Assembly (NCBI GenBank): GCA_016199085.1
Contig: JACQHJ010000002.1
Span: 31,000 to 94,999 of the forward strand
Direction: 5' to 3'
Origin: Candidatus Levyibacteriota bacterium
GTDB taxonomy: Bacteria > Patescibacteriota > Microgenomatia > Levybacterales > UBA12049
Length of the DNA: 64,000 nt
Of the stretch, positions 1,029 to 54,131 are shown piece after piece. A program made the translations under genes and the position numbers. Every line of letters starts with the position of its first letter. The first letter of the stretch is position 1. The notes beneath the pieces are model-generated. The model was not told the DNA's origin and ran no database searches. It saw nothing but the letters and a program-made list of their open reading frames with translations.

Positions 1029-1592
1029 ATGAAAAACGAAAATAGGGAAATCGAAGTCCGCTTTTTAAATATAAATCCTAAAGTTTTAATTAAAAAACTT
1101 CAGAAACTTAACGCAAAAGACGAAGGGGAATATAAAATAACAGAGACAATCTTTTACGATAAAGAAAAGACCTGGTTAAATATTGGTAAATTTGTCCGTA
1201 TCAGAAAAGCAAAGGATAAAATCTTAGTTTCCTATAAACATCATCAAAAACATACTGCAACAGATACGGTCGAAATTGAATTTGAGGTCAATGATTTTAA
1301 TAAAGCAAGAGATTTTATTGAAAGCTTAGGACTGGTTGCTTTTAGAATACAAGAGAAAAAGAGACACACTTTTAAGCTGGATAACGTCACTTTAGATATT
1401 GATACTTGGCCAACTATTCCAACATACGTAGAAATTGAAGGGGAGTCTGAGGAGGATTTAAAAGATATTGCTCAAAAATTAGATCTGGACTGGAAAAAGG
1501 CAGTATTTGAGAATGCCAAAATTGTTATAGAGAAATATTATAGAGTGCCGGTTTCTATATATAAATATTTTACTTTCAAGAAAATTGCATAA
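1029..1592 (+). CDS. CYTH-domain protein (CyaB/ThTPase-like triphosphate tunnel metalloenzyme)
   Basis: N-terminal EIEVRF (ExExK-type CYTH signature) and size about 187 aa. Confidence 0.55.
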   Translation: MKNENREIEVRFLNINPKVLIKKLQKLNAKDEGEYKITETIFYDKEKTWLNIGKFVRIRKAKDKILVSYKHHQKHTATDTVEIEFEVNDFNKARDFIESLGLVAFRIQEKKRHTFKLDNVTLDIDTWPTIPTYVEIEGESEEDLKDIAQKLDLDWKKAVFENAKIVIEKYYRVPVSIYKYFTFKKIA

Positions 1593-1660
1593 AATTGACC
1601 AATAGTAAAGTTGCGATTACAAGCATTTTACACTTACTTGGTGAAGAGTAAATACGAGGC

Positions 1661-2116
1661 CTAGGGTTTTAAATTATCGATCTGGGAAAGTTGTCCTAAG
1701 GTTCCAGTGGGACTCCTTTTACCGATAAGCATATCTTTTTTGTTCATTTCGCCAATTTCTTCAATAGTAAACCATCCATAATCTTGAAGCTCAGCGTCTA
1801 ATTTTATGTGATAATCTTTTACCCTGCCTTTTAGACTGACTAAGAAAATAAGTCCGAGTCGAATCTCACTATTATTATCTTTTTTCCAGGAATAACTTTG
1901 TATAAAAATGGGGGTTTTATCGATTTTTATACCAATCTCTTCTTTCACCTCACGTCTTATGGCATCCTCTACCGTTTCCCCAACCTCTATCTTTCCTCCA
2001 AGATTTTGCCATTTCCCAGGGAAAATATCATCAATTTTACTTCTTTGTACTAATAAAAATTTATCTGCGCAAAAGAGCGCTACTATAACTGACACTATTT
2101 GTAAGGGTTGATTCAT
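1661..2116 (-). CDS. NUDIX hydrolase
   Basis: Nudix box GGKIEVGETVEDAIRREVKEEIGI (GX5EX7REUXEEXGU). Confidence 0.75.
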   Translation of the reverse strand: MNQPLQIVSVIVALFCADKFLLVQRSKIDDIFPGKWQNLGGKIEVGETVEDAIRREVKEEIGIKIDKTPIFIQSYSWKKDNNSEIRLGLIFLVSLKGRVKDYHIKLDAELQDYGWFTIEEIGEMNKKDMLIGKRSPTGTLGQLSQIDNLKP

Positions 2117-2244
2117 GACTCTAATTTTGTATTAAAAAATATATGTTAGGATTTTAACACAATTGTTTTGGTATGAAAAATAAGCAACATTTTTATAATT
2201 AATACATTGAAAAATATCCTTTTATAGTGTAATCTAATAACTCA

Positions 2245-3372
2245 ATGTTAATTACCATTCTCGTTTTTCTCCTAATCCTTTCAATACTTGTTTTAATCCA
2301 TGAAGCAGGCCACTTCTTCGTTGCTAAATTTTTCAATATTAAGGTAGAAGAATTCGGATTCGGACTGCCTCCTCGTGCTTTTGGTATTAAAAGAGGGGAG
2401 ACTGTCTATTCTATCAATTGGCTTCCAATTGGAGGATTTGTAAAATTATTCGGGGAAGATGATGCTGGAGCAGGTAAGGTTTCATTACCAAAAATAACAC
2501 AAAATAAAACTACTAATAAAGACGAGAGTAGGGCATTCTATTCCCGTCCTGTTTGGCAAAGAGCTTCTGTTGTTTTTGCCGGAGTATTTATGAACTTTGT
2601 TTTGGCGGTTGCCATTGTATCAATCCTTTTCTCATTTATCGGAGTTGCGGTTGCCGGAAAAGATGTTGTAGTTGACCAGGTTATAAAAGGAGCTCCGGCA
2701 GAGCAGTCAGGTATAAAACCTAAAGACATAATAGTTAGTATCAATAATGTAAATATAACAACTCCTGACCAATTGGTTTTGTATACGAAAGATCATCTGG
2801 GAGAAAAACTGGTACTTAAGCTAAAAGATACAAAATCTAATATTAGAACCGTTGAGATAACCCCAAGAAGCCAATATCCCAAAGATCAAGGACCGATGGG
2901 GATTGCCATCTCTCAGAGTTTTACAACCAAAAAATACCCAATCTGGGAAGCACCGTTTGTAGGAACAAAAGAAGTTTTAAACCAGTCGGCAATGATAGGG
3001 CAGGGATTGGTAACAGTAGTAGTTCAGCTTATTACCCAGGGTTCGGTTCCCAAAGACGTTGCAGGACCTGTTGGAATTGCACAATTAACAGGAACGGTTG
3101 TTGAAATAGGCCTTCCTGCGGTTTTATCTTTTATTGCACTTTTATCACTAAATCTTGCAATTATTAATATTTTACCCATTCCTGCTTTGGACGGCGGAAG
3201 ACTTTTCTTTATTCTGATAGAGGGATTCACGGGTAGAAAGGTAAGTCCTAGAGTGGAAACTATGGCGCATACTATCGGTATGGCAGTATTACTTGGTCTA
3301 ATTGCCTTAATAACAATTCATGATTTGTTTAGAATAGCTAGCGGACAACCCTTGATTCCTCAGATAAAGTAG
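2245..3372 (+). CDS. rseP: RseP-like site-2 protease (M50 zinc metalloprotease with PDZ domain)
   Basis: HEAGHF (HExxH) in first TM helix, central PDZ-like segment (GSPAEQSGIKPKDIIVSING), C-terminal LDGG motif region. Confidence 0.8.
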   Translation: MLITILVFLLILSILVLIHEAGHFFVAKFFNIKVEEFGFGLPPRAFGIKRGETVYSINWLPIGGFVKLFGEDDAGAGKVSLPKITQNKTTNKDESRAFYSRPVWQRASVVFAGVFMNFVLAVAIVSILFSFIGVAVAGKDVVVDQVIKGAPAEQSGIKPKDIIVSINNVNITTPDQLVLYTKDHLGEKLVLKLKDTKSNIRTVEITPRSQYPKDQGPMGIAISQSFTTKKYPIWEAPFVGTKEVLNQSAMIGQGLVTVVVQLITQGSVPKDVAGPVGIAQLTGTVVEIGLPAVLSFIALLSLNLAIINILPIPALDGGRLFFILIEGFTGRKVSPRVETMAHTIGMAVLLGLIALITIHDLFRIASGQPLIPQIK

Positions 3373-3373
3373 G

Positions 3374-4186
3374 TTATTTTATAAATAAATTACCGTTTAA
3401 TTCAAGAAATCTTTTTGATTTTGTTTGGAGATCTGCGTTTACTATTCCATCGTATCCCAATTCAATTTGAGTAAGAAGTGCTTCTGCAATAGCCCCATCT
3501 TCCCTATGTGCTCTTTGAGCCTTAGTTGTTTGATCAACTATATACTCGACCTGTCTGACCCCTATGTCTTCTATGTCACCCGTGATTGTCTGAACATGTT
3601 CCATATTGTGCCTTATTCCTTCTACTTGTCCTGTGATCTCCAAAGCCATACCCACAAGGCCTAGTTTATATACGGAATCATCCCGTGATACTATGATTGC
3701 AAATCCGAGTCCGTCTTCGGATAATGCACCAGGTGCATACATAGGAGATTTCTCTTTGGGTAGAGAGTCCACTGGAGTTACAATAACTGTATTACTTTCA
3801 CCGTATAGCTGCAAGAAATGCACAGCGCTTTTAAAGACGGGATTTTGGCTTTCTGCCATAAATTGTAAAGTTTTATCAATTCTGTCTTTGGTTTCTCTTA
3901 CCAATTCCCTGTGATTTTGGATTTGTCCTTCTGGTAGGGGATCAAAAGCGTACTTTGCAAGCGTAGCTTGTTCATTTTCAATTTCCAAAGGACTGAAATG
4001 AATGGTTCTTGCCGCCTCTGCTATTAAACCGGGAGTTAATGTAGCCTGTACGGTGTCTCTTCTTGCCTGAGCTTCTGCATCATTATATTTTACCGCAGCA
4101 ACTCCAACGGTTGTTGCAACAATCGCTGTTGCTGCAAGCGCTTCCGCAAATTGTCTTCCTCTGTTTACTCCCTCTCTTCTTGGCAT
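3374..4186 (-). CDS. Hypothetical protein, compositionally atypical (Arg/Gln/Glu/Thr-rich)
   Basis: 270-aa ORF convergent with rseP, stop 2 nt from the rseP stop; no recognisable motif; higher local GC gives antisense shadow ORFs 3425..3664 and 3606..3914. Confidence 0.45.
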   Translation of the reverse strand: MPRREGVNRGRQFAEALAATAIVATTVGVAAVKYNDAEAQARRDTVQATLTPGLIAEAARTIHFSPLEIENEQATLAKYAFDPLPEGQIQNHRELVRETKDRIDKTLQFMAESQNPVFKSAVHFLQLYGESNTVIVTPVDSLPKEKSPMYAPGALSEDGLGFAIIVSRDDSVYKLGLVGMALEITGQVEGIRHNMEHVQTITGDIEDIGVRQVEYIVDQTTKAQRAHREDGAIAEALLTQIELGYDGIVNADLQTKSKRFLELNGNLFIK

Positions 4187-4265
4187 ATTTTGTTAATAGT
4201 TTTTTAAACGAAAATAGATTATATAAGAATACCGCATTTTAGTCAAACACAAGTGTGCTAAAATT

Positions 4266-4940
4266 ATGAAAATGAAGATAATAAAAGTAAAAGATGCTGG
4301 TGAAGGAGTAGATAAGGCGAAAAGTTTTATCTACAAATACTCCAATAGTCAAACCGCTTTATTTCTCTCAGGCGGTTTGACCCCAAAAGCCCTGTATCAA
4401 ACTCTTTCCACTGATAAAAAACTAAAGGCCGGAGCAGTTGCGGTTGTAGATGAAAGATTTGGGTTACCATTCCATGACAACTCAAATGAAAAAATGATCA
4501 AAGACTCACATCTTTTTGAATATCTTAAATCGACAAACACTTTGGTATTTACGGTTTTAAACGGAAAGGATATTGATAATACTACGAAAGATTATGAAAA
4601 AATCATCTCAAGGTTGTTTAAATCTTACAAACAAAAAATTGCTATCCTGGGAATTGGGGAGGACGGACATACGGCGGGTATTCCTAAAGGATACTACAAT
4701 TCAAATGAGTTGGTAATAAAAATAGATGATTTTCCCTCGGAGTTTAGGAAGCGTATTACTTTAACCTTTAAAGCACTAGAACAGATGGATAGGTTAATCG
4801 TTTTGGTTTTTGGTGAAAATAAAAAAAAGGTTTTAAATGAAATGTTTAAGAAGGGTTTACTTGAAGAACTTCCTGCAAGATTTTATTTACAGAAGGAAAT
4901 TTCTCAAAAGACTATTTTAATTACAGACCAGGCAGTTTAA
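4266..4940 (+). CDS. pgl: 6-phosphogluconolactonase
   Basis: Glucosamine-6-P isomerase/6PGL family motif ILGIGEDGHTAG; lies next to zwf and gnd. Confidence 0.7.
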   Translation: MKMKIIKVKDAGEGVDKAKSFIYKYSNSQTALFLSGGLTPKALYQTLSTDKKLKAGAVAVVDERFGLPFHDNSNEKMIKDSHLFEYLKSTNTLVFTVLNGKDIDNTTKDYEKIISRLFKSYKQKIAILGIGEDGHTAGIPKGYYNSNELVIKIDDFPSEFRKRITLTFKALEQMDRLIVLVFGENKKKVLNEMFKKGLLEELPARFYLQKEISQKTILITDQAV

Positions 4941-5413
4941 GTATCTCTTTGAATTTTTCTACTTAACCTTTGAATTCCTTTTTTGGACATTTTCGATCTC
5001 CAGAGCACTATTGCTCCCTCTCCTTCATAGGGGTTTGGAATTGCGGTTTGAATAGCCATTACATTAAATCCTTCTTGTGGACTATAGACTAATTCATACG
5101 ACCTATATAAATCATGTGATTGTCCATTAACCAGACTGACACCTTCTTTTCTATCAACACCTCCTAAAAGATATGTTTTGTCAACTCTATCAAGGTAAAG
5201 CCTGGGGCGTCTGTAGTAGAAAGCATGAAAAAATAATGGATTTGAGTCAGCAGTTCTAACGCTAACGCTTGCGGGGTTTCTAGGATCTTGTTGATAAATT
5301 CTATTTCTTTCAACATAAGAAACCAAATCGACCATGAAAAGAGCTATTGTAGGACTTGGTGGTCTAAAGCTTTCAGGAATTAATATACTCTGTTCTATTT
5401 CTGTTTTTAGCAT
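4937..5413 (-). CDS. Hypothetical protein, compositionally atypical
   Basis: 158-aa ORF overlapping the pgl stop by 4 nt on the opposite strand; Arg/Pro/Tyr-rich; no known motif. Confidence 0.4.
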   Translation of the reverse strand: MLKTEIEQSILIPESFRPPSPTIALFMVDLVSYVERNRIYQQDPRNPASVSVRTADSNPLFFHAFYYRRPRLYLDRVDKTYLLGGVDRKEGVSLVNGQSHDLYRSYELVYSPQEGFNVMAIQTAIPNPYEGEGAIVLWRSKMSKKGIQRLSRKIQRDT

Positions 5414-5467
5414 CTGGATATTATACCGAAAAATTGCCAGAAGTTTATAAATTCAAGGAGAAGTATT

Positions 5468-5983
5468 TTACCGTCTAGCTGGGGGAAGACTTCTGAAAAT
5501 TGTTCTATCAAATAATCCTCTTAATTTTCCCAAAGCGCTTAATCCAGTTGAAACGGGAATGACTGCGTTGGAATCTCGTGGTTCTATAAGAGTAAGCTCA
5601 GCTCTGGCAATTGGTCCAGTGCCATCTCGAAGATATCTTTCCTGTAGCCTGTGACTTGCGGCATGGATTTCTCCTAAAGTGGCAGAAGATACTCCTATCT
5701 CCGTAGGTAGTGTACCATCTGGGTACACCAGGCCTACTTGTCTGATACTTACTCTCTCGATGATGATGGTAGTTCCATTGGTTCGTGTTATGTCGATCTC
5801 AAGTGTTTCGCCGTCTTCTGGTGGCGCAATGCCCTCTGGCCCTATTAACCTAGATGTTAAATCGTCTGCAAAAGCTCTCAATTGTTCATCTTCATGTAAT
5901 TGTTCAGGGGTCAACCTCCATCTACCTGCAATGTCTTGTCTTCTTTCAGTTATGTCTCCTGGCATAGTTGCGAAAATATACAC
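5468..5983 (-). CDS. Hypothetical protein, compositionally atypical
   Basis: 171-aa ORF; Arg/Glu/Thr/Leu-rich; its antisense frame is open (the 5679..6020 extension of the zwf frame), but that extension is Ser/Cys-rich and non-protein-like. Confidence 0.4.
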   Translation of the reverse strand: MYIFATMPGDITERRQDIAGRWRLTPEQLHEDEQLRAFADDLTSRLIGPEGIAPPEDGETLEIDITRTNGTTIIIERVSIRQVGLVYPDGTLPTEIGVSSATLGEIHAASHRLQERYLRDGTGPIARAELTLIEPRDSNAVIPVSTGLSALGKLRGLFDRTIFRSLPPARR

Positions 5984-10490: not shown

Positions 10491-11720
10491 ATGAGGTACT
10501 CGGGTCTTTTTCCAAAAACTTTAAAGACAGCTCCAAGCGGGGCAGAGTCTCTAAATCACAAATTATTAGTTAGAGCAGGATACATTGATCAGTTAATGGC
10601 AGGCTCTTTTACGTTACTTCCCTTAGGTTTTAGGGTTGTAGAAAAGATTAAAGAAATCATAAGGGAAGAATTAAATAAAACTGGAGCCCAAGAGCTTTTA
10701 ATGCCCCTACTTCATCCAAGAGATATCTGGGATCAAAGCGGAAGATGGTCCAAGCCTGAAGTAAGAAAGATAATGTATCAGTTCAAGGATATTCATGATA
10801 AAGAGTTCGGACTCTCTTTTACCCATGAAGAAATAGTTATGGACCTTCTTTCTAAGTTTATACAAAGCTATAAGGATTTACCCGTAAAGGTTTATCATTT
10901 TTCAACCAAATTCAGAAACGAACCAAGAGCCAAGTCTGGGATTTTAAGAGGCAGGGAATTTATGATGAAAGATTTATACAGCGCCCATACCACAGAAGAG
11001 GATATGTATTTGTATTACAACCAGATAAAAGATATCTATCCAAAGATTTTTAAAAGAATTGGACTTGAGGTAAAAGTCGTTGAGGCTAGTGGGGGCGTAT
11101 TTACGCCTTCCCACAGCCACGAATTCCAGGTTTTATGTAGAGTTGGAGAAGATACGATCTTTTACTGTGATAAATGTGATTTTGCCCAAAATAAAGAAAT
11201 TTTTCAAGGACAAGAGGGGAGTAAATGCCCAAACTGCGATGGAAAAATACTTACCGCAAAATCCATTGAAGTTGGCAATATCTTTCCTTTGGGTACGGAT
11301 TTTTCAATAAATCAGAAAGTTTTCTATACAGATGCCAATGGCAAACAAAACCCAATCTGGTTTGCAAGCTACGGCATCGGTCCAACAAGGGTTTTGGGTA
11401 CACTGGCTGAGGTTTTTAATGATGAAAATGGTCTTATTTTTCCCAAATCGGTCGCCCCGTTTGATGTCCACTTAATTAGTCTATCTAAAACCGAAGAAGC
11501 CAAAAAAATCGAGGAAGAACTTGAAAAAAACGGATTTGAAGTTCTATATGATGATAGGGAAGTAACGGCGGGAGAGAAATTTGCCACGGCAGATTTGATT
11601 GGAATTCCGGTAAGACTGGTTGTTAGCGAGAAAACCGGCGGGAAAATTGAATTTAAACAAAGAAATAAAAAGGAAAGCCAGCTTTTAACTTTAGAAGAAG
11701 TTTTGGAGAAATTAAAATAA
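10491..11720 (+). CDS. proS: Prolyl-tRNA synthetase (short form)
   Basis: N-terminus MRYSGLFPKTLKTAPSGAESLNHKLLVRAGYIDQLMAGSFTLLPLG aligns with the ProRS N-terminus, class II motifs FRNEPR, GILRGREFMMKD; start moved to ATG 10491 from the track's 10356. Confidence 0.8.
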   Translation: MRYSGLFPKTLKTAPSGAESLNHKLLVRAGYIDQLMAGSFTLLPLGFRVVEKIKEIIREELNKTGAQELLMPLLHPRDIWDQSGRWSKPEVRKIMYQFKDIHDKEFGLSFTHEEIVMDLLSKFIQSYKDLPVKVYHFSTKFRNEPRAKSGILRGREFMMKDLYSAHTTEEDMYLYYNQIKDIYPKIFKRIGLEVKVVEASGGVFTPSHSHEFQVLCRVGEDTIFYCDKCDFAQNKEIFQGQEGSKCPNCDGKILTAKSIEVGNIFPLGTDFSINQKVFYTDANGKQNPIWFASYGIGPTRVLGTLAEVFNDENGLIFPKSVAPFDVHLISLSKTEEAKKIEEELEKNGFEVLYDDREVTAGEKFATADLIGIPVRLVVSEKTGGKIEFKQRNKKESQLLTLEEVLEKLK

Positions 11721-12149
11721 CCCAAAGACCTTAGCCCAGATTACGATATAGGCTCCGAAGAATATCAACCCTCCGATTATAAATAAAAGCGGTAACATAT
11801 TTAATTTTTTCTTTTGTGTATTGGTAACCGAGGTAGAAGGAGATTGGGCAAAAAGACCGGAAGGGGGTTCAACGGTTGTAGTAGCAAAGCTTTGACCTAT
11901 TGGCGCAGCTTTATTAAGCGCAGGATCTGGTGCTTGGAGATTTTGACTAGGCACCTGCGATGTTTGCATAAGAGGAGTATTCGGTTGCGGAGTTGGGTTT
12001 TCCTTGGGAGGTTCACCGGCTGGTTGCGGAGCATTAGGTGCAGGTTGAGGTTGCGGGTCAGCACTTTTAGGAGTAAAATTACTTCCCATTACTCTTTCAT
12101 ATGCTTCTCTTAATTTCGGATCCAAATCATTAACGTTTTTAGGATTCAT
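11712..12149 (-). CDS. Pro/Gln-rich tail-anchored membrane protein, compositionally atypical
   Basis: 145 aa; long low-complexity PQPQPAPNAPQPAGEPPKENPTPQP stretch and a single C-terminal TM helix LPLLFIIGGLIFFGAYIVIWA; overlaps the proS 3' end by 9 nt on the opposite strand. Confidence 0.4.
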   Translation of the reverse strand: MNPKNVNDLDPKLREAYERVMGSNFTPKSADPQPQPAPNAPQPAGEPPKENPTPQPNTPLMQTSQVPSQNLQAPDPALNKAAPIGQSFATTTVEPPSGLFAQSPSTSVTNTQKKKLNMLPLLFIIGGLIFFGAYIVIWAKVFGLF

Positions 12150-12208
12150 AGGCAGTATGAGACTATTATACCGTTTTTAACTAAACTCTTGTCAAGGGGA
12201 GTATATGA

Positions 12209-12463
12209 TTAGGCGCCTGCAGGTAGGGGTCTTCCTCTGGCGGTTAATTCCTGTCTTCTTAAAAATTTTTCAACTTGTCCTAATGCTTGAGTTGTATCCT
12301 TTAATTTAGGACATGTTGACGGAGTTTGTTCCCAAACCGTCTGGGGTTGGACACCGGGACATATCCCTAAAGCATAAAAATCACAAGTTGTAAGACCGGT
12401 TGCGGATTCACCTCTTGCAGCAGCGGCTCTTGCCGCTAATTTTAATAATTCACATTCAACCAT
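12209..12463 (-). CDS. Hypothetical small protein, compositionally atypical (Ala/Arg-rich, 4 Cys)
   Basis: 84-aa ORF between the Pro-rich ORF and the VanX-like gene; no motif. Confidence 0.3.
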   Translation of the reverse strand: MVECELLKLAARAAAARGESATGLTTCDFYALGICPGVQPQTVWEQTPSTCPKLKDTTQALGQVEKFLRRQELTARGRPLPAGA

Positions 12464-12539
12464 ATATTCAAACCAAAAAATTATAGTAACTTTAACAGTG
12501 TTATGTCTGTGATAAATGTCTTAAAATTTGTTTTGGTAT

Positions 12540-13691
12540 TTAATTTGCTTGGGGTGAAATTTCTTCCGAATTGGGCAGAGAGGTTTGAGCATAATTACCA
12601 TCTCTTCGTAATGATTTTTCTACAGCTTGTCTGGCTTTCCCCAATGGATCCTTATTTCGTCCCAATGCTCGGTCTAAGAAGCTTCTTCTATGTCGAGGTC
12701 GCCAACCGTCTTGGATTCGCAATACTCCTAGCCTATGTTGTTGTCTAATTTTTTCATGTTCTAGGTTTTCGGCAGATAATGCTATCCTTCCAAAATTTGC
12801 TGTTTCAAGTCCTGCTGTTTTTGCCCCCATCTGGGATTTGGGAGAATTAAAATGCCACCATTCATCTGGATATGCTTGCAGGCCAACGTCTTTCATTATA
12901 TGATACAAAAGTCTTCTATTTCTTAAAGCCTCATTTTCCTCATCCGTAAGTGGTCTTTCTTGCGCTAATTGTTCAAAGTATGTTGAGGAAGCTTTTTCGC
13001 CGCCGTGATCAAATGGGGTCCCAAAATAAAGGTAGGCCCCATGGCTTTTAATAGTTGTCATTTCCATTTCTAGGTCATATCTATGCAAGTCTGTGTCTGG
13101 TAAATCTTTGATTTCCTCCTCAATCTCACTTATTCTTTGTGCTTGCTCATCTGGGACTCTTATGATTGCAAGATCAACCGCTCCGCCCGTATTGTGGGGA
13201 GAAGGTTTTGCTGGGTCGCTAGAGGGTAAAGAAACAAATTTTTGTGCCTCGGTCGTTAATTGTTCTTCTGTCCAATCAGGATGTAATTTTTGTAATTCTG
13301 AATAGTATTTTTCATATAAAGCTCCTTGTATTTGTAATGTTCTATATGCGTCATGGATTATTAGGAAATGGTTTCTTGGGAGGAGTGCTTGAGCTTTTTC
13401 CAGAGCCTCGGCAACACTTGGTCTTACAAACATAGTTGTCAAAGATCCAGGAAGTCTTTGCGGATCTACTAAGTTCTGGTCTTGCCTGTAGGGAGAGTTA
13501 TCTCTTTCTCCAGAGTAAATTGAATCAGTGAAGATTCTAGGATGGTTTGAAAAAGCACCTAATGGGACAAGGTAAGCATCTTCTCCTAGCTGTTCGGGTG
13601 CGATGGGGATTTCTTTCCAGCCAGCGACGCTTGGTATATTAAGAGGTATTGGAATATCTCTTCTATCAATTGAGGTTGATTTTTCAGGCAT
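12540..13691 (-). CDS. VanX/DdpX-type D-Ala-D-Ala dipeptidase homolog (LAS zinc metallopeptidase) with N- and C-terminal extensions
   Basis: SPHNTGGAVDLAII (SxHxxGxAxD zinc-ligand motif) and DEWWHF (ExxH catalytic motif) as in VanX; 383 aa versus about 200 aa for VanX; 7 nt downstream of ddl on the same strand; atypical composition. Confidence 0.5.
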   Translation of the reverse strand: MPEKSTSIDRRDIPIPLNIPSVAGWKEIPIAPEQLGEDAYLVPLGAFSNHPRIFTDSIYSGERDNSPYRQDQNLVDPQRLPGSLTTMFVRPSVAEALEKAQALLPRNHFLIIHDAYRTLQIQGALYEKYYSELQKLHPDWTEEQLTTEAQKFVSLPSSDPAKPSPHNTGGAVDLAIIRVPDEQAQRISEIEEEIKDLPDTDLHRYDLEMEMTTIKSHGAYLYFGTPFDHGGEKASSTYFEQLAQERPLTDEENEALRNRRLLYHIMKDVGLQAYPDEWWHFNSPKSQMGAKTAGLETANFGRIALSAENLEHEKIRQQHRLGVLRIQDGWRPRHRRSFLDRALGRNKDPLGKARQAVEKSLRRDGNYAQTSLPNSEEISPQAN

Positions 13692-13698
13692 AAGAAAA

Positions 13699-14631
13699 TT
13701 ATACTGCTTTTTTAATTAATATTTCTAAGAATTCATTGAAACTTAGGCCTACTGCCTTTGCTTCTTTCGGAAGAAGGCTTCCTTCGGTAAGACCTGGAAT
13801 TGTATTAACATCAATTGCGTAGGGAATATCTTTATAGACCATAAAATCGGTTCGTGAATAAGTTCCTAAATCAAATGCATTGTGAATCCTTAAAGTTAAG
13901 TCCTGTATTTTTTCCTGAAGCCCTTTATCTAAAGATGGGGCAAAGGGAATTTCCTTGGTAGTATTGTCGTATTTGACTTTATAGGAAAACCAGGTGTCTT
14001 TCGTAGGAACTATTTCGATAATCGGGAGTGCTTTCTTATTAAGTATTCCTACAGTTATATCATATCCTTTAAGATATTCTTCAACGAAAGTTGGAGTATT
14101 AAAGGAAAGTATCTTTTTAACATCGGCTCTATTTAAATCATCTTTTGTTTTTATAATAGCGACTTCTCTTGATGAACCTCCGTTTGAAGTTTTTAAAACA
14201 CAGGGAATACCAAACTTTAAAATATCATTTTTGTTTTTAACAATTTTCCATTTTGGAGTTTTAATGCCATTTTTATCGCAATACTTTTTAAAAGGAATTT
14301 TATACCAACCACCTTTAAGACCTTTATAATTTCTTGTTCCGACAATCGGTTTATTAATGCTTGCTAAAAATTTATGTAATTTTCCACCTTCTCCTTCTTC
14401 TCCGTGCAAAACAGGGAAGAGAACATCAAAATCTTTTGAAACCTTTTTAATAGGTAAATAACCGTTTCTTAGGTCGTACAACTTAACTTTATGTCCGTTT
14501 TGGATAAATGTTTTCTTAACATTTCTTGCAGAATTTAAAGAAACAGGTCTTTCCGAGGAATTGCCGCCTGTAATGATCAATATCTTCATAAAAGGTTCTT
14601 TATATGTATCATTTTGATCCTGTTTTGTCAA
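13699..14631 (-). CDS. ddl: D-alanine--D-alanine ligase
   Basis: ATP-grasp Ddl motifs: N-terminal KILIITGGNSSERPVSLNSA, VLFPVLHGEEGEGG, C-terminal EIPFAPSLD...GLSF. Confidence 0.8.
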   Translation of the reverse strand: MTKQDQNDTYKEPFMKILIITGGNSSERPVSLNSARNVKKTFIQNGHKVKLYDLRNGYLPIKKVSKDFDVLFPVLHGEEGEGGKLHKFLASINKPIVGTRNYKGLKGGWYKIPFKKYCDKNGIKTPKWKIVKNKNDILKFGIPCVLKTSNGGSSREVAIIKTKDDLNRADVKKILSFNTPTFVEEYLKGYDITVGILNKKALPIIEIVPTKDTWFSYKVKYDNTTKEIPFAPSLDKGLQEKIQDLTLRIHNAFDLGTYSRTDFMVYKDIPYAIDVNTIPGLTEGSLLPKEAKAVGLSFNEFLEILIKKAV

Positions 14632-35344: not shown

Positions 35345-37666
35345 ATGGCAGTAAGTAAAAAAGTTTCCAAAAACCTTCATTCTTTTAGGGAAATTACAGA
35401 CAGTATTCCCGCCATGGTTGCAATTTATAACATCCATACTGGTAAGTATGTTTACGTAAACCGCTCTATAAAGAGGCTTTTGGGATATAGCCCGGAGGAT
35501 TTTATTAAAAAAGGAATGCCGTTTGTTTCTTCCCTTGTTCATCCAGATGATATACCGAAAGTTGCCCTGGAAAACAAAAAAGCACTAAAAATGGCAAACA
35601 AGAAAGGATATAAAAAAGACAAAGACCCGATTAGCCATTTTGAATACAGAATGATGCATAAAGATGGTAAATACAGATGGCTTCATACCGACGGAAGCGT
35701 ATTTTCAAGAGATAAAAATGGAAAAGTGGAATACGTTTTGAACGCCTCCTTAAATATTACAAAGAGAAAAGAAATGGAGGAAAAATATATTGACCTGACA
35801 AAAAATCTTGAGGAAAAAATAAAAGAAAGAACTCAAAACCTCGAAAAAGAAGAGAAAAAATTTAAAACCTTGGTTGAGAACAGTTGGGAAGCGGTTTTAC
35901 TTGTAGATGCAAAAGCGCGTCTTTTATACGCAACTCCTTCAATAGTTAAGCTTTTTGGAAGAAAATTTGATGAATTTATGGGTGTAAGCGGAATAAAGTT
36001 TGTCCATCCTTTGGATATTACTAAGGTTCTAAAAAAACTTTCTACGCTTTTACTAAAACCAAACTCAAGGGTAACCTTGGAATCCAGAATAAAGCACAAG
36101 CTTGGACATTACAGATGGGTAGAAGCCACAGCCACGAACCTTTTAAAAGACCCCGATGTTAAAGCAATAGTCGTAAATCTTAGGGATATTACCGAAAGAA
36201 AAACTTCTGAGGAAAATTTAAAAACTGCTCTTAAGGATCTGCAGGATATGAAATATGCACTTGACCAGTCATCAATAGTCTCAATTACAAATAACAAGGG
36301 AATTATTGAATATGTCAACGATAGATATACTCAGATATCAAAATATGCAAAAAAAGAACTAATTGGAAAAACCCATCATCTTTTAAGTTCGAATTATCAT
36401 CCTAAGGAGTTTTTCCATAATCTTTGGAAAACAGTGTTATCAGGTAAGGTTTGGCATGGGGAAATCAGAAACAAGGCAAAAGACGGCAGTTTCTATTGGG
36501 AAGATACGACTATTGTTCCTTTTTTGGATCACCTTGGTAGGCCCAAGCAATTTATTGAGATAAAAAAAGACATTACAAAACAGAAGAAATTTTATGAGGA
36601 TCTTCAAACAAGCGAAGAACGTTTGAGGATTGCGATTGCAGCCGGAAAAATTGGAGTATGGGAATGGGATATTATCGAAAATAAAATAATCTGGTCGGAG
36701 AGAATCTATGAAATCCATGGTGTTAAAAAAGAAGATTTTAAGGGAACTATTGAAGAATATACTAAACTAATTTATCCAGATGACAGAAAGACAGTAGAGG
36801 AGGCAATTAAACAAGCTCTTTTGGGAAAAGAAACGTATTCATTAGAGTTTAGAGCTTATGGTCCCAACCAGTCTGTAATTTGGATACACACTAGAGCAAC
36901 GGTAGTGTTTGATGGGAAAAAGCCCATTAAAATGCTTGGTGCCACTTTTGAAATTACACAAAGAAAAGAGTTGGAGCAGAGAAAGGATGATTTTATTGCT
37001 CTTGCAAGCCACGAGCTAAAGACCCCTCTTACGTCGCTTAAGATATTCACACAAGTGTTCGAGCAACGTTTTAAAAGACAGGGGGACATACAAATGACGA
37101 CATACTTTAATGCAATGGACAAACAAATCGACAAACTTACCTCCCTGGTAAACAGTCTCTTGGATTCCTCAAGAGTAAGGCAGGGTAAGCTTTCTTATAA
37201 GAAAAATAAATTCAGACTCAAAGATTTAATCTTAGAAGTAGTGCAGAGCTTGCAGTCTATAACCAAAACACATAAAATCGAAGTTGTCGGAGACGACAAT
37301 AATGAAATAGTTGCCGATAGAGATAGAATTGGACAAGTGTTAATTAATCTGATTAATAACGCTATTAAATATTCGCCAAATGCGAACAGGGTTACTGTTT
37401 CTTTTAAGAAAATGGAAGATAATATGCAAACTAGCGTACAGGATTTCGGAGTAGGAATAAGTCAGGAAGAAAAAGATAGGATTTTTGAAAGATTTTCACA
37501 GGCAAGGAGCAGCCCTTTAAAAAGAACTTTTCCCGGACTAGGTCTTGGATTATATATTTCCAAGGAAATCATAGAAAGACATAATGGAAAAATTTGGCTA
37601 AAGACTAAAGAGAATAAGGGTTCTACCTTCTACTTTACTCTGCCTATTAAAAAAAACACAAACTGA
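35345..37666 (+). CDS. Multi-PAS sensor histidine kinase
   Basis: Four PAS/PAC-like modules, HisKA H-box LASHELKTPLTS, HATPase N-box LINNAIKYSP, G-boxes DFGVGI and GLGLGL. Confidence 0.85.
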   Translation: MAVSKKVSKNLHSFREITDSIPAMVAIYNIHTGKYVYVNRSIKRLLGYSPEDFIKKGMPFVSSLVHPDDIPKVALENKKALKMANKKGYKKDKDPISHFEYRMMHKDGKYRWLHTDGSVFSRDKNGKVEYVLNASLNITKRKEMEEKYIDLTKNLEEKIKERTQNLEKEEKKFKTLVENSWEAVLLVDAKARLLYATPSIVKLFGRKFDEFMGVSGIKFVHPLDITKVLKKLSTLLLKPNSRVTLESRIKHKLGHYRWVEATATNLLKDPDVKAIVVNLRDITERKTSEENLKTALKDLQDMKYALDQSSIVSITNNKGIIEYVNDRYTQISKYAKKELIGKTHHLLSSNYHPKEFFHNLWKTVLSGKVWHGEIRNKAKDGSFYWEDTTIVPFLDHLGRPKQFIEIKKDITKQKKFYEDLQTSEERLRIAIAAGKIGVWEWDIIENKIIWSERIYEIHGVKKEDFKGTIEEYTKLIYPDDRKTVEEAIKQALLGKETYSLEFRAYGPNQSVIWIHTRATVVFDGKKPIKMLGATFEITQRKELEQRKDDFIALASHELKTPLTSLKIFTQVFEQRFKRQGDIQMTTYFNAMDKQIDKLTSLVNSLLDSSRVRQGKLSYKKNKFRLKDLILEVVQSLQSITKTHKIEVVGDDNNEIVADRDRIGQVLINLINNAIKYSPNANRVTVSFKKMEDNMQTSVQDFGVGISQEEKDRIFERFSQARSSPLKRTFPGLGLGLYISKEIIERHNGKIWLKTKENKGSTFYFTLPIKKNTN

Positions 37667-52021: not shown

Positions 52022-53170
52022 ATGAAAAAACTTGGAATACTTTTAATCCTTCTCATTTTTGTCCTGTTTATCTGGGTTGTATTTACAAGTACTTTCCCCA
52101 AATTTCTTTCCAGTCTAAATATTCCCCAGTCTCCAATATCAAAAGAAAGCGTAAAAGTGGTAAAAGAAGAGTCCGTTGTTATAGACGTTGTCAAAAACGT
52201 CGGTCAGTCCGTTGTTACGGTTGTTAGGATTGCTCCAGCTTCAACTAGAAACACTATCGGGTTTGGTCCATTCGGATTCTTCGAAGTACCCCAAGAAAAT
52301 CAGGAAGATCAGGTATCAAGTATAGGATCAGGTTTTATCTTAACCAGTGATGGACTCGTTGCCACAAACAAACACGTCGTCTCAGATACGGGTGTTAAAT
52401 ATCAGGTTGTGACAAGCGATAATAAGACATACGACGTTGAAAAAGTATCAAAAGATCCGCTTAATGACATAGCACTTCTTAAAATAAATCCTAATCAAAA
52501 CCCAGATAAGAAGCTGGCAAGCGTAACGCTTGGCAATTCACAAAGTCTACAGGTTGGCCAGTTTGTAATAGCCATTGGAACTGCACTTGGTGAGTTTAGA
52601 AATACTGTTACAACCGGAGTAATCTCCGGACTTGGCAGGGGAATAACAGCCGGAAGCGCTTTTGAAGGCTTTGTTGAAAAACTTGATAACGTCATCCAAA
52701 CAGACGCGGCAATTAACCCTGGCAACAGCGGAGGACCTTTGGTAAACTCCCAAGGAGAAGTAATCGGGATCAATACGGCAGTATCCCAGTCTGGTCAAAA
52801 CATCGGTTTTGCTCTGCCCATAAATGTTCTAAAAGAAGCCTTATCTAATTTTAACCAAAACGGACAGTTTAACAGACCGTATCTTGGCGTATCTTACGTT
52901 ATGCTTTCAAAACAAGAGGCTGACCTAAATGATCTAGTCGAGGGAGCATATATCCAAAGCGTAGTGAAAGGCTCTCCGGCTGATCTTTCAGGTTTACAAC
53001 CGGGAGACGTAATAACAAGTTTTGACAAAAAGAAAGTAGTAATAGGAGCAAGTGAGCTATCAAGTTTAATTGCCTCTAAAAAAGTAGGGGAAAAGACAGA
53101 TATAATAGTAGTCAGGGAGCAAAAACAGGTTACGCTTTCGGCAACTATTGGTTCCGCTCCAAGTGAGTAA
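52022..53170 (+). CDS. htrA: HtrA/DegP-family serine protease with PDZ domain
   Basis: N-terminal TM, catalytic triad context (HV, DIALLKI, GNSGGPLVN), C-terminal PDZ. Confidence 0.85.
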   Translation: MKKLGILLILLIFVLFIWVVFTSTFPKFLSSLNIPQSPISKESVKVVKEESVVIDVVKNVGQSVVTVVRIAPASTRNTIGFGPFGFFEVPQENQEDQVSSIGSGFILTSDGLVATNKHVVSDTGVKYQVVTSDNKTYDVEKVSKDPLNDIALLKINPNQNPDKKLASVTLGNSQSLQVGQFVIAIGTALGEFRNTVTTGVISGLGRGITAGSAFEGFVEKLDNVIQTDAAINPGNSGGPLVNSQGEVIGINTAVSQSGQNIGFALPINVLKEALSNFNQNGQFNRPYLGVSYVMLSKQEADLNDLVEGAYIQSVVKGSPADLSGLQPGDVITSFDKKKVVIGASELSSLIASKKVGEKTDIIVVREQKQVTLSATIGSAPSE

Positions 53171-53180
53171 AAGACAATAT

Positions 53181-54131
53181 ATGTTTGTAATACAACAAAA
53201 TATCTCCCTTAAGGACTACAGTAATTTTAAAATCGGCGGAAAAGCAAGATATTTTTTGGAAGTAAAAAGCGTAAACGATATCCTAGAAGGAGTTAGAAAG
53301 TGGAGAGAAACCGATATTGAAAGCAATTTTCAAAGAAAATATTTTGTTTTAGGAGGAGGAACTAATGTTTTATTTAATGACGCAGGCTTTGACGGTTTGG
53401 TTATCAAAAATTCCATAGACGAGATTAGAATGGAAGAGGATCTTTTGGTTGTTGGAGCTGGGGTTTTAATGTCAAAGTTATTGGACTACTGTGTAGAAAA
53501 TAGTCTTTCCGGTCTTGAGTGGGCGGGAGGCCTTCCGGGTACCGTCGGAGGAGCGGTCAGAGGCAATGCGGGAGCATACAGGGGAGAAACAAAGGACAAA
53601 ATCGTAGAAGTTGACAGCGTAAACCTCGATACCTTGGAACAGAAAACAAGAACTTATGATCAGTGCCAATTTGACTACAGAACTAGTATTTTTAAAACTA
53701 CGGCCGCAAACGAAGTCATTACTTATATAAAATTCAAATTAACCAAAGGTAAAAAGGAAGAAATAGAAAGTTTAATAGAAGACAAAAAGACAAAAAGAAA
53801 GTTAAGGCATCCTTTAGAGTATCCCAATGTAGGAAGTATATTCAAAAATGTTCCCATAGGAAAGTTTACCAAAGAACAGATAAAACAATTGTCTCAATAT
53901 GTTAAAGACGATCCTTTTGCGGTTATTCCAACCGCAAAAATTAACTTCTTAGCAGGCCTTTCGGGTAAAAGGGTAGGGGACGCCAAGCTTTCAGAGAAGC
54001 ACACCAATTTTATAGTCAACCTTGGCAATGCCAAAGCAGAAGATGTCAAAAAGTTAATTGAAATAATTATAAAAGTAGTTAGGGAAAAGTTTGGAATAGA
54101 ACTGGAACCCGAAGTAATGTTTGTTGATTAG
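53181..54131 (+). CDS. murB: UDP-N-acetylenolpyruvoylglucosamine reductase
   Basis: FAD-binding [34 protein letters not shown] motif region; start at ATG 53181. Confidence 0.8.

Follow-up and report, generated by a model that had tools for sequence, protein, structure and literature searches.

The analysed window is a 64,000-nucleotide (nt) stretch of contig JACQHJ010000002.1 from a Candidatus Levyibacteriota bacterium, and the subject of this study is a pair of genes on its minus strand. The first is a D-alanine--D-alanine ligase gene of the short DdlB type (ddl, 13699..14631), and the second encodes a long-form zinc D,D-dipeptidase of the VanX family with 383 amino acids (aa), here called M15 (12540..13691). 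Direct reading of the sequence located the ddl stop codon TAA at 13701..13699 and the M15 start codon ATG at 13691, separated by the 7-nt spacer TTTTCTT (13692..13698, minus strand). A region scan found no terminator-like site between the two genes, and the counts of promoter-like and terminator-like matches around ddl-M15 were not above shuffled expectation. As the two genes lie on the same strand with a gap of 7 nt and no terminator-like site between them, their co-transcription is likely. The initial annotation had described this 383-aa open reading frame (ORF) with its two metallopeptidase motifs, the 7-nt distance from the ddl stop codon and the probable co-transcription; the ORF, the motifs and the distance were borne out, and the co-transcription is likely from spacing, strand and the region scan. 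An identical protein (P0001) is present in NCBI in a Candidatus Levybacteria metagenome-assembled genome (MAG) under the name 'D-alanyl-D-alanine carboxypeptidase family protein'.

The M15 protein scored 58.2 bits (E 1.2e-15) with the Pfam family Peptidase_M15 (PF01427, 'D-ala-D-ala dipeptidase'), for which the gathering score is 27. The only solved structure matched by sequence was VanX (1R44), with E 2e-4 for the single sequence and E 2e-7 for the family profile. The best match among the NCBIfam models was DdpX (NF007557, 43.8 bits against a cut-off of 176), and neither this equivalog nor that of VanX (NF033115, 28.5 against 320 bits) was reached. By our reading of these matches, M15 belongs to the PF01427 family, MEROPS M15D.

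Active-site residues were mapped by an alignment with VanX, E. coli DdpX (taken from NC_000913) and intermediate homologues; residues 7-130 and 158-185 of the VanX sequence used were confirmed by the 1R44 matches. The motif SPHNTGGAVDL (residues 164-174; 13170..13202, minus strand) provides Ser164, equivalent to VanX Ser114, and the zinc ligands His166 and Asp173, equivalent to His116 and Asp123. The motif DEWWHF (residues 276-281; 12849..12866, minus strand) provides Glu277 and His280, equivalent to the catalytic Glu181 and the zinc ligand His184 of VanX. Arg117 (13341..13343, minus strand), aligned with VanX, DdpX and the homologues from lactic acid bacteria, corresponds to VanX Arg71 and is invariant in 25 family members. 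VanX D68, D142 and W182 correspond to D114, D228 and W278 of the window protein, and VanX Y21 corresponds to Y59 in the MAFFT alignment or to Y68 in that of HMMER. All the ten mapped residues of VanX (Y21, D68, R71, S114, H116, D123, D142, E181, W182 and H184) were thus identical in M15 and invariant in the 25-member alignment. We take S114, D142 and Y21 of VanX to be the dipeptide-binding residues, with the Asp and the Tyr binding the free N-terminal amine, and Arg71 to be the stabilizer of the transition state.

An AlphaFold2 model built on the 25-member alignment was confident, with a predicted local distance difference test (pLDDT) score of 89.4 and a predicted template modelling (pTM) score of 0.89, and a Foldseek search with this model ranked VanX first (E 1.4e-7), the LAS fold of M15 being nearer to VanX than to VanY or endolysins. 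The first rank of VanX, together with the residue mapping, indicated that M15 and VanX have specific elements in common beyond the LAS core. A coincidental occurrence of the motifs was ruled out by the Pfam, profile and fold matches, and the enzyme class is secure: M15 is a genuine LAS metallopeptidase of the VanX/DdpX type, as had been proposed, with the zinc ligands H166, D173 and H280 and the catalytic E277 conserved. Neither a signal peptide nor a transmembrane or hydrophobic segment was found in M15. A secreted or wall-acting peptidase was ruled out by the lack of a signal peptide and a transmembrane segment, and M15 is expected to be cytoplasmic because it has no hydrophobic segment. In the proposed reaction, the zinc ion would be held by His166, Asp173 and His280, Glu277 would activate the water molecule, and Arg117 would stabilize the tetrahedral intermediate. 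The carboxylate and the free amine of the dipeptide would be held by Ser164, Asp228 and the conserved Tyr (Tyr59 or Tyr68). Since these contacts are conserved, M15 would cleave D-Ala-D-Ala, or a D,D-dipeptide closely resembling it, and release free D-Ala.

The ligase matched Pfam Dala_Dala_lig_C (PF07478, 111 bits) and Dala_Dala_lig_N (PF01820, 55 bits). Its best NCBIfam model was the DdlB-type PRK01372 with 211.6 bits (model cut-off 243), compared with 113 bits for the VanG model and 70.8 bits for the D-Ala-D-Lac ligase model, and by these scores its sequence is divergent, as usual for these phyla. The best solved structure was B. anthracis Ddl (3R23, E 1.7e-41), and the top structures were ordinary Ddl enzymes. 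In the alignment to E. coli DdlB read from NC_000913, which also gives the numbering used here, the ligase kept E15, H63, S150, K215-Y216, R255, D257, N272, G276 and S281-L282, and had Asp at the position of E270. A passage in PMC5996685, citing Park & Walsh 1997, assigns Tyr at position 216 to dipeptide ligases and Phe to depsipeptide ligases. VanA-type ligases carry a different omega loop ('SHGFFRIHQE..PE.GSEN'). Having no VanA-type loop, no Phe216 and no Ser-Arg at 281-282, the window ligase is, as judged from its active-site residues, a canonical D-Ala-D-Ala ligase. Its longest ORF starts with TTG at 14631 and encodes 310 aa, whereas ATG at 14589 would give 296 aa; the homologues start with 'MKILIITGG', which corresponds to this ATG. 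The true start is probably ATG 14589, so that the mechanically defined gene end would lie about 42 nt too far. The TTG at 14631 is part of a TTGACA hexamer and precedes the homologue-type ATG by 42 nt.

Neither a second ligase nor murF was found in the 64-kb window. A tblastn search of the window with the VanH of a Ktedonobacteria locus (L030) detected no vanH, and vanT had no specific search. For a linked VanR/VanS pair, the 64 kb gave only weak matches, namely to an unrelated PAS histidine kinase at 35345..37666 and to a receiver lying 22 kb off. The initial annotation had invoked the logic of vanA/vanX-type resistance, with a ligase making D-Ala-D-Lac or D-Ala-D-Ser. Because the ligase triad is canonical and neither vanH nor a second ligase is present in the window, a target-reprogramming resistance cassette is not supported by the sequence of this locus. 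Inspection of E15, S150, K215-Y216 and S281-L282 likewise spoke against the suggested ligase specificity. The vanA/vanX logic applies at the level of the family instead, as relatives of M15 occur in the vanH-vanA-type clusters described below.

A first homology search with M15 collected 299 proteins, mostly of 330-450 aa, the few source-named ones being from Levybacteria, Daviesbacteria and Saccharibacteria. An exhaustive profile search gave 302 clusters (50% identity) at E <= 1e-30 and 4133 at E <= 1e-3. In a scan of one genome per species, the long form was found in Patescibacteria of several phyla, in Ktedonobacteria and in a few Actinomycetota MAGs. The same sampling detected shorter relatives of approximately 245 aa in Weissella, Leuconostoc, Oenococcus, Lentilactobacillus and Caldanaerobacter, and of approximately 220 aa in Peregrinibacteria. 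The long form also occurs in Woesebacteria (L021). In a neighbour-joining tree, which was made with no bootstrap, the long forms made up one clade with the forms of lactic acid bacteria neighbouring it, DdpX and VanX fell well outside, and the van-linked members were one sub-clade inside the Patescibacteria radiation. By these sequence searches, the long-form clade resides mainly in Patescibacteria.

Relative to the forms of approximately 245 aa, the long form has three additions: about residues 61-80 are an insertion, about residues 177-217 form a hairpin of two helices, and from about residue 300 the C-terminus is extended by a helical part. The hairpin insertion of approximately 40 residues (13041..13163, minus strand; helices 181-194 and 202-216 in the model) is absent from VanX, DdpX and the approximately 245-aa forms of lactic acid bacteria, and showed a ratio of nonsynonymous to synonymous substitution rates (dN/dS) of 0.12. 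The C-terminal extension (residues 300-383; 12543..12794, minus strand) is mostly helical, with helices 307-327 and 349-364 in the model, has conserved alignment columns and showed a dN/dS of 0.16. Both the long and the approximately 245-aa forms carry an N-terminal segment reading 'PIP..P..GWKE.PI' and one more helix ahead of the zinc motif, neither of which occurs in VanX or DdpX. M15 is indeed nearly twice as long as VanX (383 and 202 aa), as had been noted; its added length, which had been ascribed to unique N- and C-terminal extensions, proved to be partly internal and conserved over hundreds of homologues.

Against the 83%-identical relative L007, M15 showed a dN/dS of 0.11 overall and of 0.08-0.16 in every segment including the family-specific insertions. 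Judged from these ratios, it is a real, functional gene under strong purifying selection. The GC content of the gene was 0.411 (z +1.2 among 69 ORFs of the window), and that at third codon positions (GC3) was 0.286 (z -0.4). The excess was located in codon positions 1 and 2 and is therefore an effect of the amino-acid content. The membership in an atypical-composition class claimed for M15 was thus refuted by its GC3, and a recent horizontal acquisition was ruled out by this average GC3 together with the synteny kept with L005 and L007.

The genomic neighbours of the clade were counted at 40 non-redundant long-form loci, taking Ddl-family ligases within 4 kb. Such a ligase was by far the commonest neighbour and was found at 23 of the 40 loci in varied orientations, and no transporter recurred among the neighbours of these 40 loci. 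At 14 of the 23 ligase-linked loci, the ligase was of the Tyr type and immediately adjacent to M15 with a gap of at most 140 nt, lying upstream on the same strand, downstream, convergent or divergent. One of the Saccharibacteria loci (L003) had a Tyr-type ddl on both sides of M15 with a murF-like gene nearby. The ligases of two further loci (L027 and L039) carried Phe at the Tyr216 position, and the remaining seven had a VanA-type omega loop. VanRS-like regulation was considered at the Daviesbacteria locus L001 and rejected, as the regulator was a stand-alone 138-aa receiver and not an OmpR-type VanR. A search of a plasmid collection gave only distant Streptomyces and other M15 matches, which were uninformative.

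The loci with VanA-type ligases showed the long form in the position of VanX. In four Ktedonobacteria loci (L030, L033, L034 and L037), murF, the vanA-type gene and vanH lay on one strand, and the long M15, a C39-like peptidase gene, vanR and vanS on the other. In a Saccharibacteria MAG (L049, 3846..10023), a vanH-like D-2-hydroxyacid dehydrogenase gene, a VanA-type ligase gene and a long M15 gene were followed by two ORFs that clustered with the response regulator and the histidine kinase of Ktedonobacteria (vanR/vanS), and this region resembles a full van-like cluster, here in a lineage of episymbionts. Two Saccharimonadales loci (L024 and L032) had the VanA-type ligase gene less than 3 kb from M15. 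These van-cluster relatives in Ktedonobacteria and Saccharimonadales showed 43-46% identity to the window M15. In a further protein of 834 aa (P0136), an FAD/NAD(P)-binding domain (PF13454) at the N-terminus is fused to a long M15 domain whose motif 'FAEWWHF' is that of the van-linked type. VanA-linked and Tyr-Ddl-linked members differed at only about 9 positions, a comparison confounded by phylogeny; specificity-determining differences were rejected, as, with the exception of D276A beside the catalytic Glu, no known catalytic or substrate residue was among these positions. Since the substrate contacts of VanX are all kept, clade members fill the role of VanX in van clusters, and the two groups differ at few positions, none of them known to be catalytic or binding, the substrate of the window M15 is very probably D-Ala-D-Ala.

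The Ktedonobacteria loci have been described by Yushchuk et al. 2022 (PMC9689679), who reported that vanX had been lost and an M15B peptidase of '>320 aa' with about 15% identity to VanX gained, and who suggested that this M15, paired with a C39 peptidase, was an insertion sequence passenger. MAGs and Patescibacteria were left out of consideration in that study (PMC9689679). The Ktedonobacteria proteins belong to the same long-form clade as the window M15, with 43-44% identity over residues 15-335 and the same insertions and C-terminal extension, and were nested in the Patescibacteria clade of the neighbour-joining tree. They differ in context, lying between vanRS and vanHA with a C39-like peptidase, whereas the window M15 follows a routine ddl with no C39 or van genes. 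Although filed as M15B in PMC9689679, the Ktedonobacteria protein would be placed with VanX (PF01427, M15D) by the matches obtained here, and from the sequence comparisons the long-form clade is the likely source of this VanX replacement.

These van-linked relatives raised the question of intrinsic glycopeptide tolerance, in which M15 would act in target reprogramming like VanX or Aad, with D-Lac or D-Ser ends made by a ligase encoded outside the window or by a side activity of the adjacent ligase. Actinobacteria include glycopeptide producers. Saccharibacteria grow on Actinobacteria (PMC10633639), members of the same clade take the place of VanX next to vanH and a VanA-type ligase in both Saccharimonadales and Ktedonobacteria (PMC9689679), and the active sites of VanA-linked and Tyr-linked members are alike. 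The Phe-bearing ligases of L027 and L039, and the occurrence of the nearest cultured core-domain relatives in the D-Lac-using Weissella, Leuconostoc, Oenococcus and Lentilactobacillus, point in the same direction. Set against this are the ligase beside the window M15, which has the canonical E15/S150/Y216 and S281-L282 and scores as DdlB-type and not as Van-type, the lack of vanH, a second ligase and an adjacent VanRS in the 64 kb, and the 14 related loci and a fusion protein that also pair M15 with Tyr-type ligases. We consider such a function at the window locus rather improbable.

Two arrangements connected M15 with the routine D-alanine branch in the synthesis of peptidoglycan precursors. 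At L042, the alanine racemase gene alr (3898..5052), ddl (5049..5948) and M15 (from 6001) lie on one strand, with alr and ddl overlapping by 4 nt. The fusion protein P0164 (565 aa) consists of an M15 domain that has no hairpin and a Tyr-type Ddl, and is encoded identically on four contigs, among them L089 (5001..6698) and L090 (2833..4530), between murA and a murF-like gene; two of the four contigs come from separate sequencing runs. No further M15-Ddl fusion was found among the matches listed, so that the fusion represents a single lineage. We therefore propose that M15, presumably co-transcribed with the canonical D-Ala-D-Ala ligase, would be the hydrolytic counterweight to Ddl. It would limit the pool of D-Ala-D-Ala or recover it as D-Ala, for instance during a halt of wall synthesis. 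Where a lineage has gained vanH and a VanA-type ligase, the same enzyme would be pre-adapted to serve as the VanX equivalent. This routine metabolic role is the least secure step of the argument; it is our preferred reading, which we hold to be about as likely as not.

Several points weigh against this role. A ligase that is co-expressed or fused with a dipeptidase for its own product would waste ATP in a cycle if neither kinetics nor regulation stood in the way. The M15-Ddl fusion comes from one lineage. The ligase search covered only the 64-kb window of the 204-kb contig, which makes an alternative ligase elsewhere in the genome possible. Moreover, as no dipeptide transporter recurs near M15, an import-and-hydrolyse role in the style of DdpX is without contextual support.

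The paradox of the futile cycle would be resolved, for both the co-transcription and the fusion, if the physiological substrate were not D-Ala-D-Ala, M15 serving instead to supply Ddl with D-Ala from other D-Ala-containing peptides scavenged from the host wall or to edit non-canonical D,D-dipeptides produced by a promiscuous ligase. No alr was found anywhere in the 64-kb window, and in L007 alr is split into two ORFs (193 and 153 aa; 1495..2618) divergent from ddl-M15, which suggests, as far as these sequences can indicate, a loss or decay of alr in the window lineage and would make an external source of D-Ala useful. The insertions specific to the long form could also change the pocket. Nevertheless, all the dipeptide-binding residues of VanX including D228 and the Tyr are kept, which argues against longer substrates. 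Family members also work in van clusters, where D-Ala-D-Ala is necessarily the target, with no difference in the active site, and L042 has an intact alr in the same operon. A different substrate is unlikely in our estimation.

DdpX of E. coli (b1488) belongs to the same family, has the same catalytic residues and works in a host with a canonical Ddl, hence in a non-resistance role. Candidate-phyla-radiation bacteria are amino-acid auxotrophs, and a catabolism of imported D-Ala-D-Ala under starvation or for nutrition, with an incidental adjacency to ddl, would agree with DdpX being the best NCBIfam match of M15 and with E. coli ddpX heading an operon with a D,D-dipeptide ABC (ATP-binding cassette) transporter (ddpXABCDF). 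The score of M15, however, is far under the DdpX equivalog cut-off, DdpX (193 aa) lies outside the long-form clade in the tree, and the dominant neighbour of the long form is Ddl, with no recurrent transporter. This explanation appears very unlikely.

VanX of the Enterococcus vanA clusters (1R44) resembles M15 in the zinc ligands, the catalytic Glu, the Arg71 equivalent, the Ser/Asp/Tyr contacts and the cytoplasmic location, and its slot in vanH-vanA-type clusters is held by some members of the long-form clade. The two proteins differ in sequence (about 20-23% identity), in the N-terminal segment, two internal insertions and C-terminal extension that M15 adds, and in the partnership of M15 with a canonical Ddl and no vanH or vanRS in the window. 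The VanY/VanXY D,D-carboxypeptidases (M15B) have the LAS core and the zinc motif in common with M15, which in contrast scored 23.6 bits with Pfam VanY, under the cut-off of 25, and keeps the dipeptide-binding elements of the VanX type. The closest cultured relatives are the approximately 245-aa forms of lactic acid bacteria, which showed 31-36% identity over residues 78-301 and have in common with M15 the PSPHNTGG motif, an N-terminal segment of the form 'PI..P..W' and the inserted helix that precedes the zinc site. Unlike M15, they have no hairpin, 61-80 insertion or C-terminal extension, and were adjacent to ddl at 0 of about 25 loci. The partner ligase in lactic acid bacteria is of the Phe type (PMC5996685), and Aad of Lactobacillus plantarum is presented in a passage of the same source, citing Deghorain 2007, as a VanX-like dipeptidase of a D-lactate user. 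This Aad may itself belong to the approximately 245-aa sub-clade.

Regarding the surroundings, the window showed the hallmarks of a small Patescibacteria genome with a GC content of about 37%. Conserved neighbours, including proS, a DHH-like gene, HIT, S21, ybeY and dnaX, were in the same order as in the relative L005, and murB was located at 53148..54131. No structured RNA was detected when the whole window was scanned with Rfam and for tRNAs. Downstream of M15, the product of the gene at 11712..12149 (minus strand) has 145 aa, is rich in Pro and Gln, carries a transmembrane helix at its C-terminus and gave no Pfam match; a protein at the same position in L005 showed 46% identity, and the first residues were conserved in L007 and L016. 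Between this gene and the M15 stop codon, a block of approximately 300 bp (12204..12502) is absent from L007 and L005. It holds an 84-codon ORF (12209..12463, minus strand) whose product has four Cys (MVECELLKLAARAAAARGES...), and a promoter-like CAGACA-18-TATAAT lies ahead of this ORF at 12509..12480. The block gave no Rfam or tRNA match, was found only once in the window and had no homologue among the loci compared.

Two further observations concerned other loci of the family. In the Woesebacteria locus L021 (3654..5791), M15 adjoins two Ddl-like ATP-grasp paralogues without the determinants of Ddl, as E15 is present in one only and S150, K215-Y216 and S281-L282 are replaced; from these replacements the paralogues probably act on different substrates. 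The entries L007, L016, L042, L027 and L039 are titled 'uncultured Gammaproteobacteria' or 'Pseudomonadales', yet their ddl-M15 genes are 50-83% identical to those of the window and the synteny is Patescibacteria-like, and these labels are probably wrong.

VanX-type dipeptidases are known from three settings, which are resistance, producer immunity and survival of starvation. The annotation of the window protein as an M15/D-Ala-D-Ala peptidase and the long form in Ktedonobacteria (PMC9689679) were already known. In the literature searched, we found no description of the clade as a Patescibacteria-wide family, no report of its linkage to canonical ddl including the alr-ddl-M15 operon and the fusion, and no account of it as the probable origin of the peptidase that replaces VanX in Ktedonobacteria. 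Literature on Patescibacteria together with a D-Ala-D-Ala dipeptidase or alanine racemase gave nothing specific, and the annotation and domain tables of the Southlakia paper (PMC10633639) had no entry for a VanX-like dipeptidase. For genomes of the candidate phyla radiation, vanX-like matches have been tallied among the resistance-like genes with no check of synteny (PMC8651080). The present results advise caution, in that such matches should not be counted as resistance genes. Some soil Saccharimonadales with complete vanH-vanA-X-RS-like clusters are, on the other hand, relevant to the environmental reservoir of glycopeptide resistance.

An ordinary D-Ala-D-Ala ligase is the leading genomic partner of this large, uncharacterized clade. 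As a tentative proposal, which we put forward as possible but by no means probable in its entirety, the long-form M15 would be a dedicated partner of canonical Ddl in Patescibacteria, the ligase-hydrolase pair would form an unrecognized step of precursor synthesis, and the clade would be the reservoir for the 'VanX replacement' of Ktedonobacteria and Saccharimonadales. The unrecognized step could lie in turning over the D,D-dipeptide pool in a regulated way, in editing this pool, or in a salvage of D-Ala in organisms that are losing alanine racemase. If M15 cleaves the product of its own partner ligase, ultra-small and energy-limited bacteria would keep an apparently wasteful pair of enzymes under strong purifying selection, and such a pair, if true, would point to an unrecognized control or salvage step in the synthesis of wall precursors.

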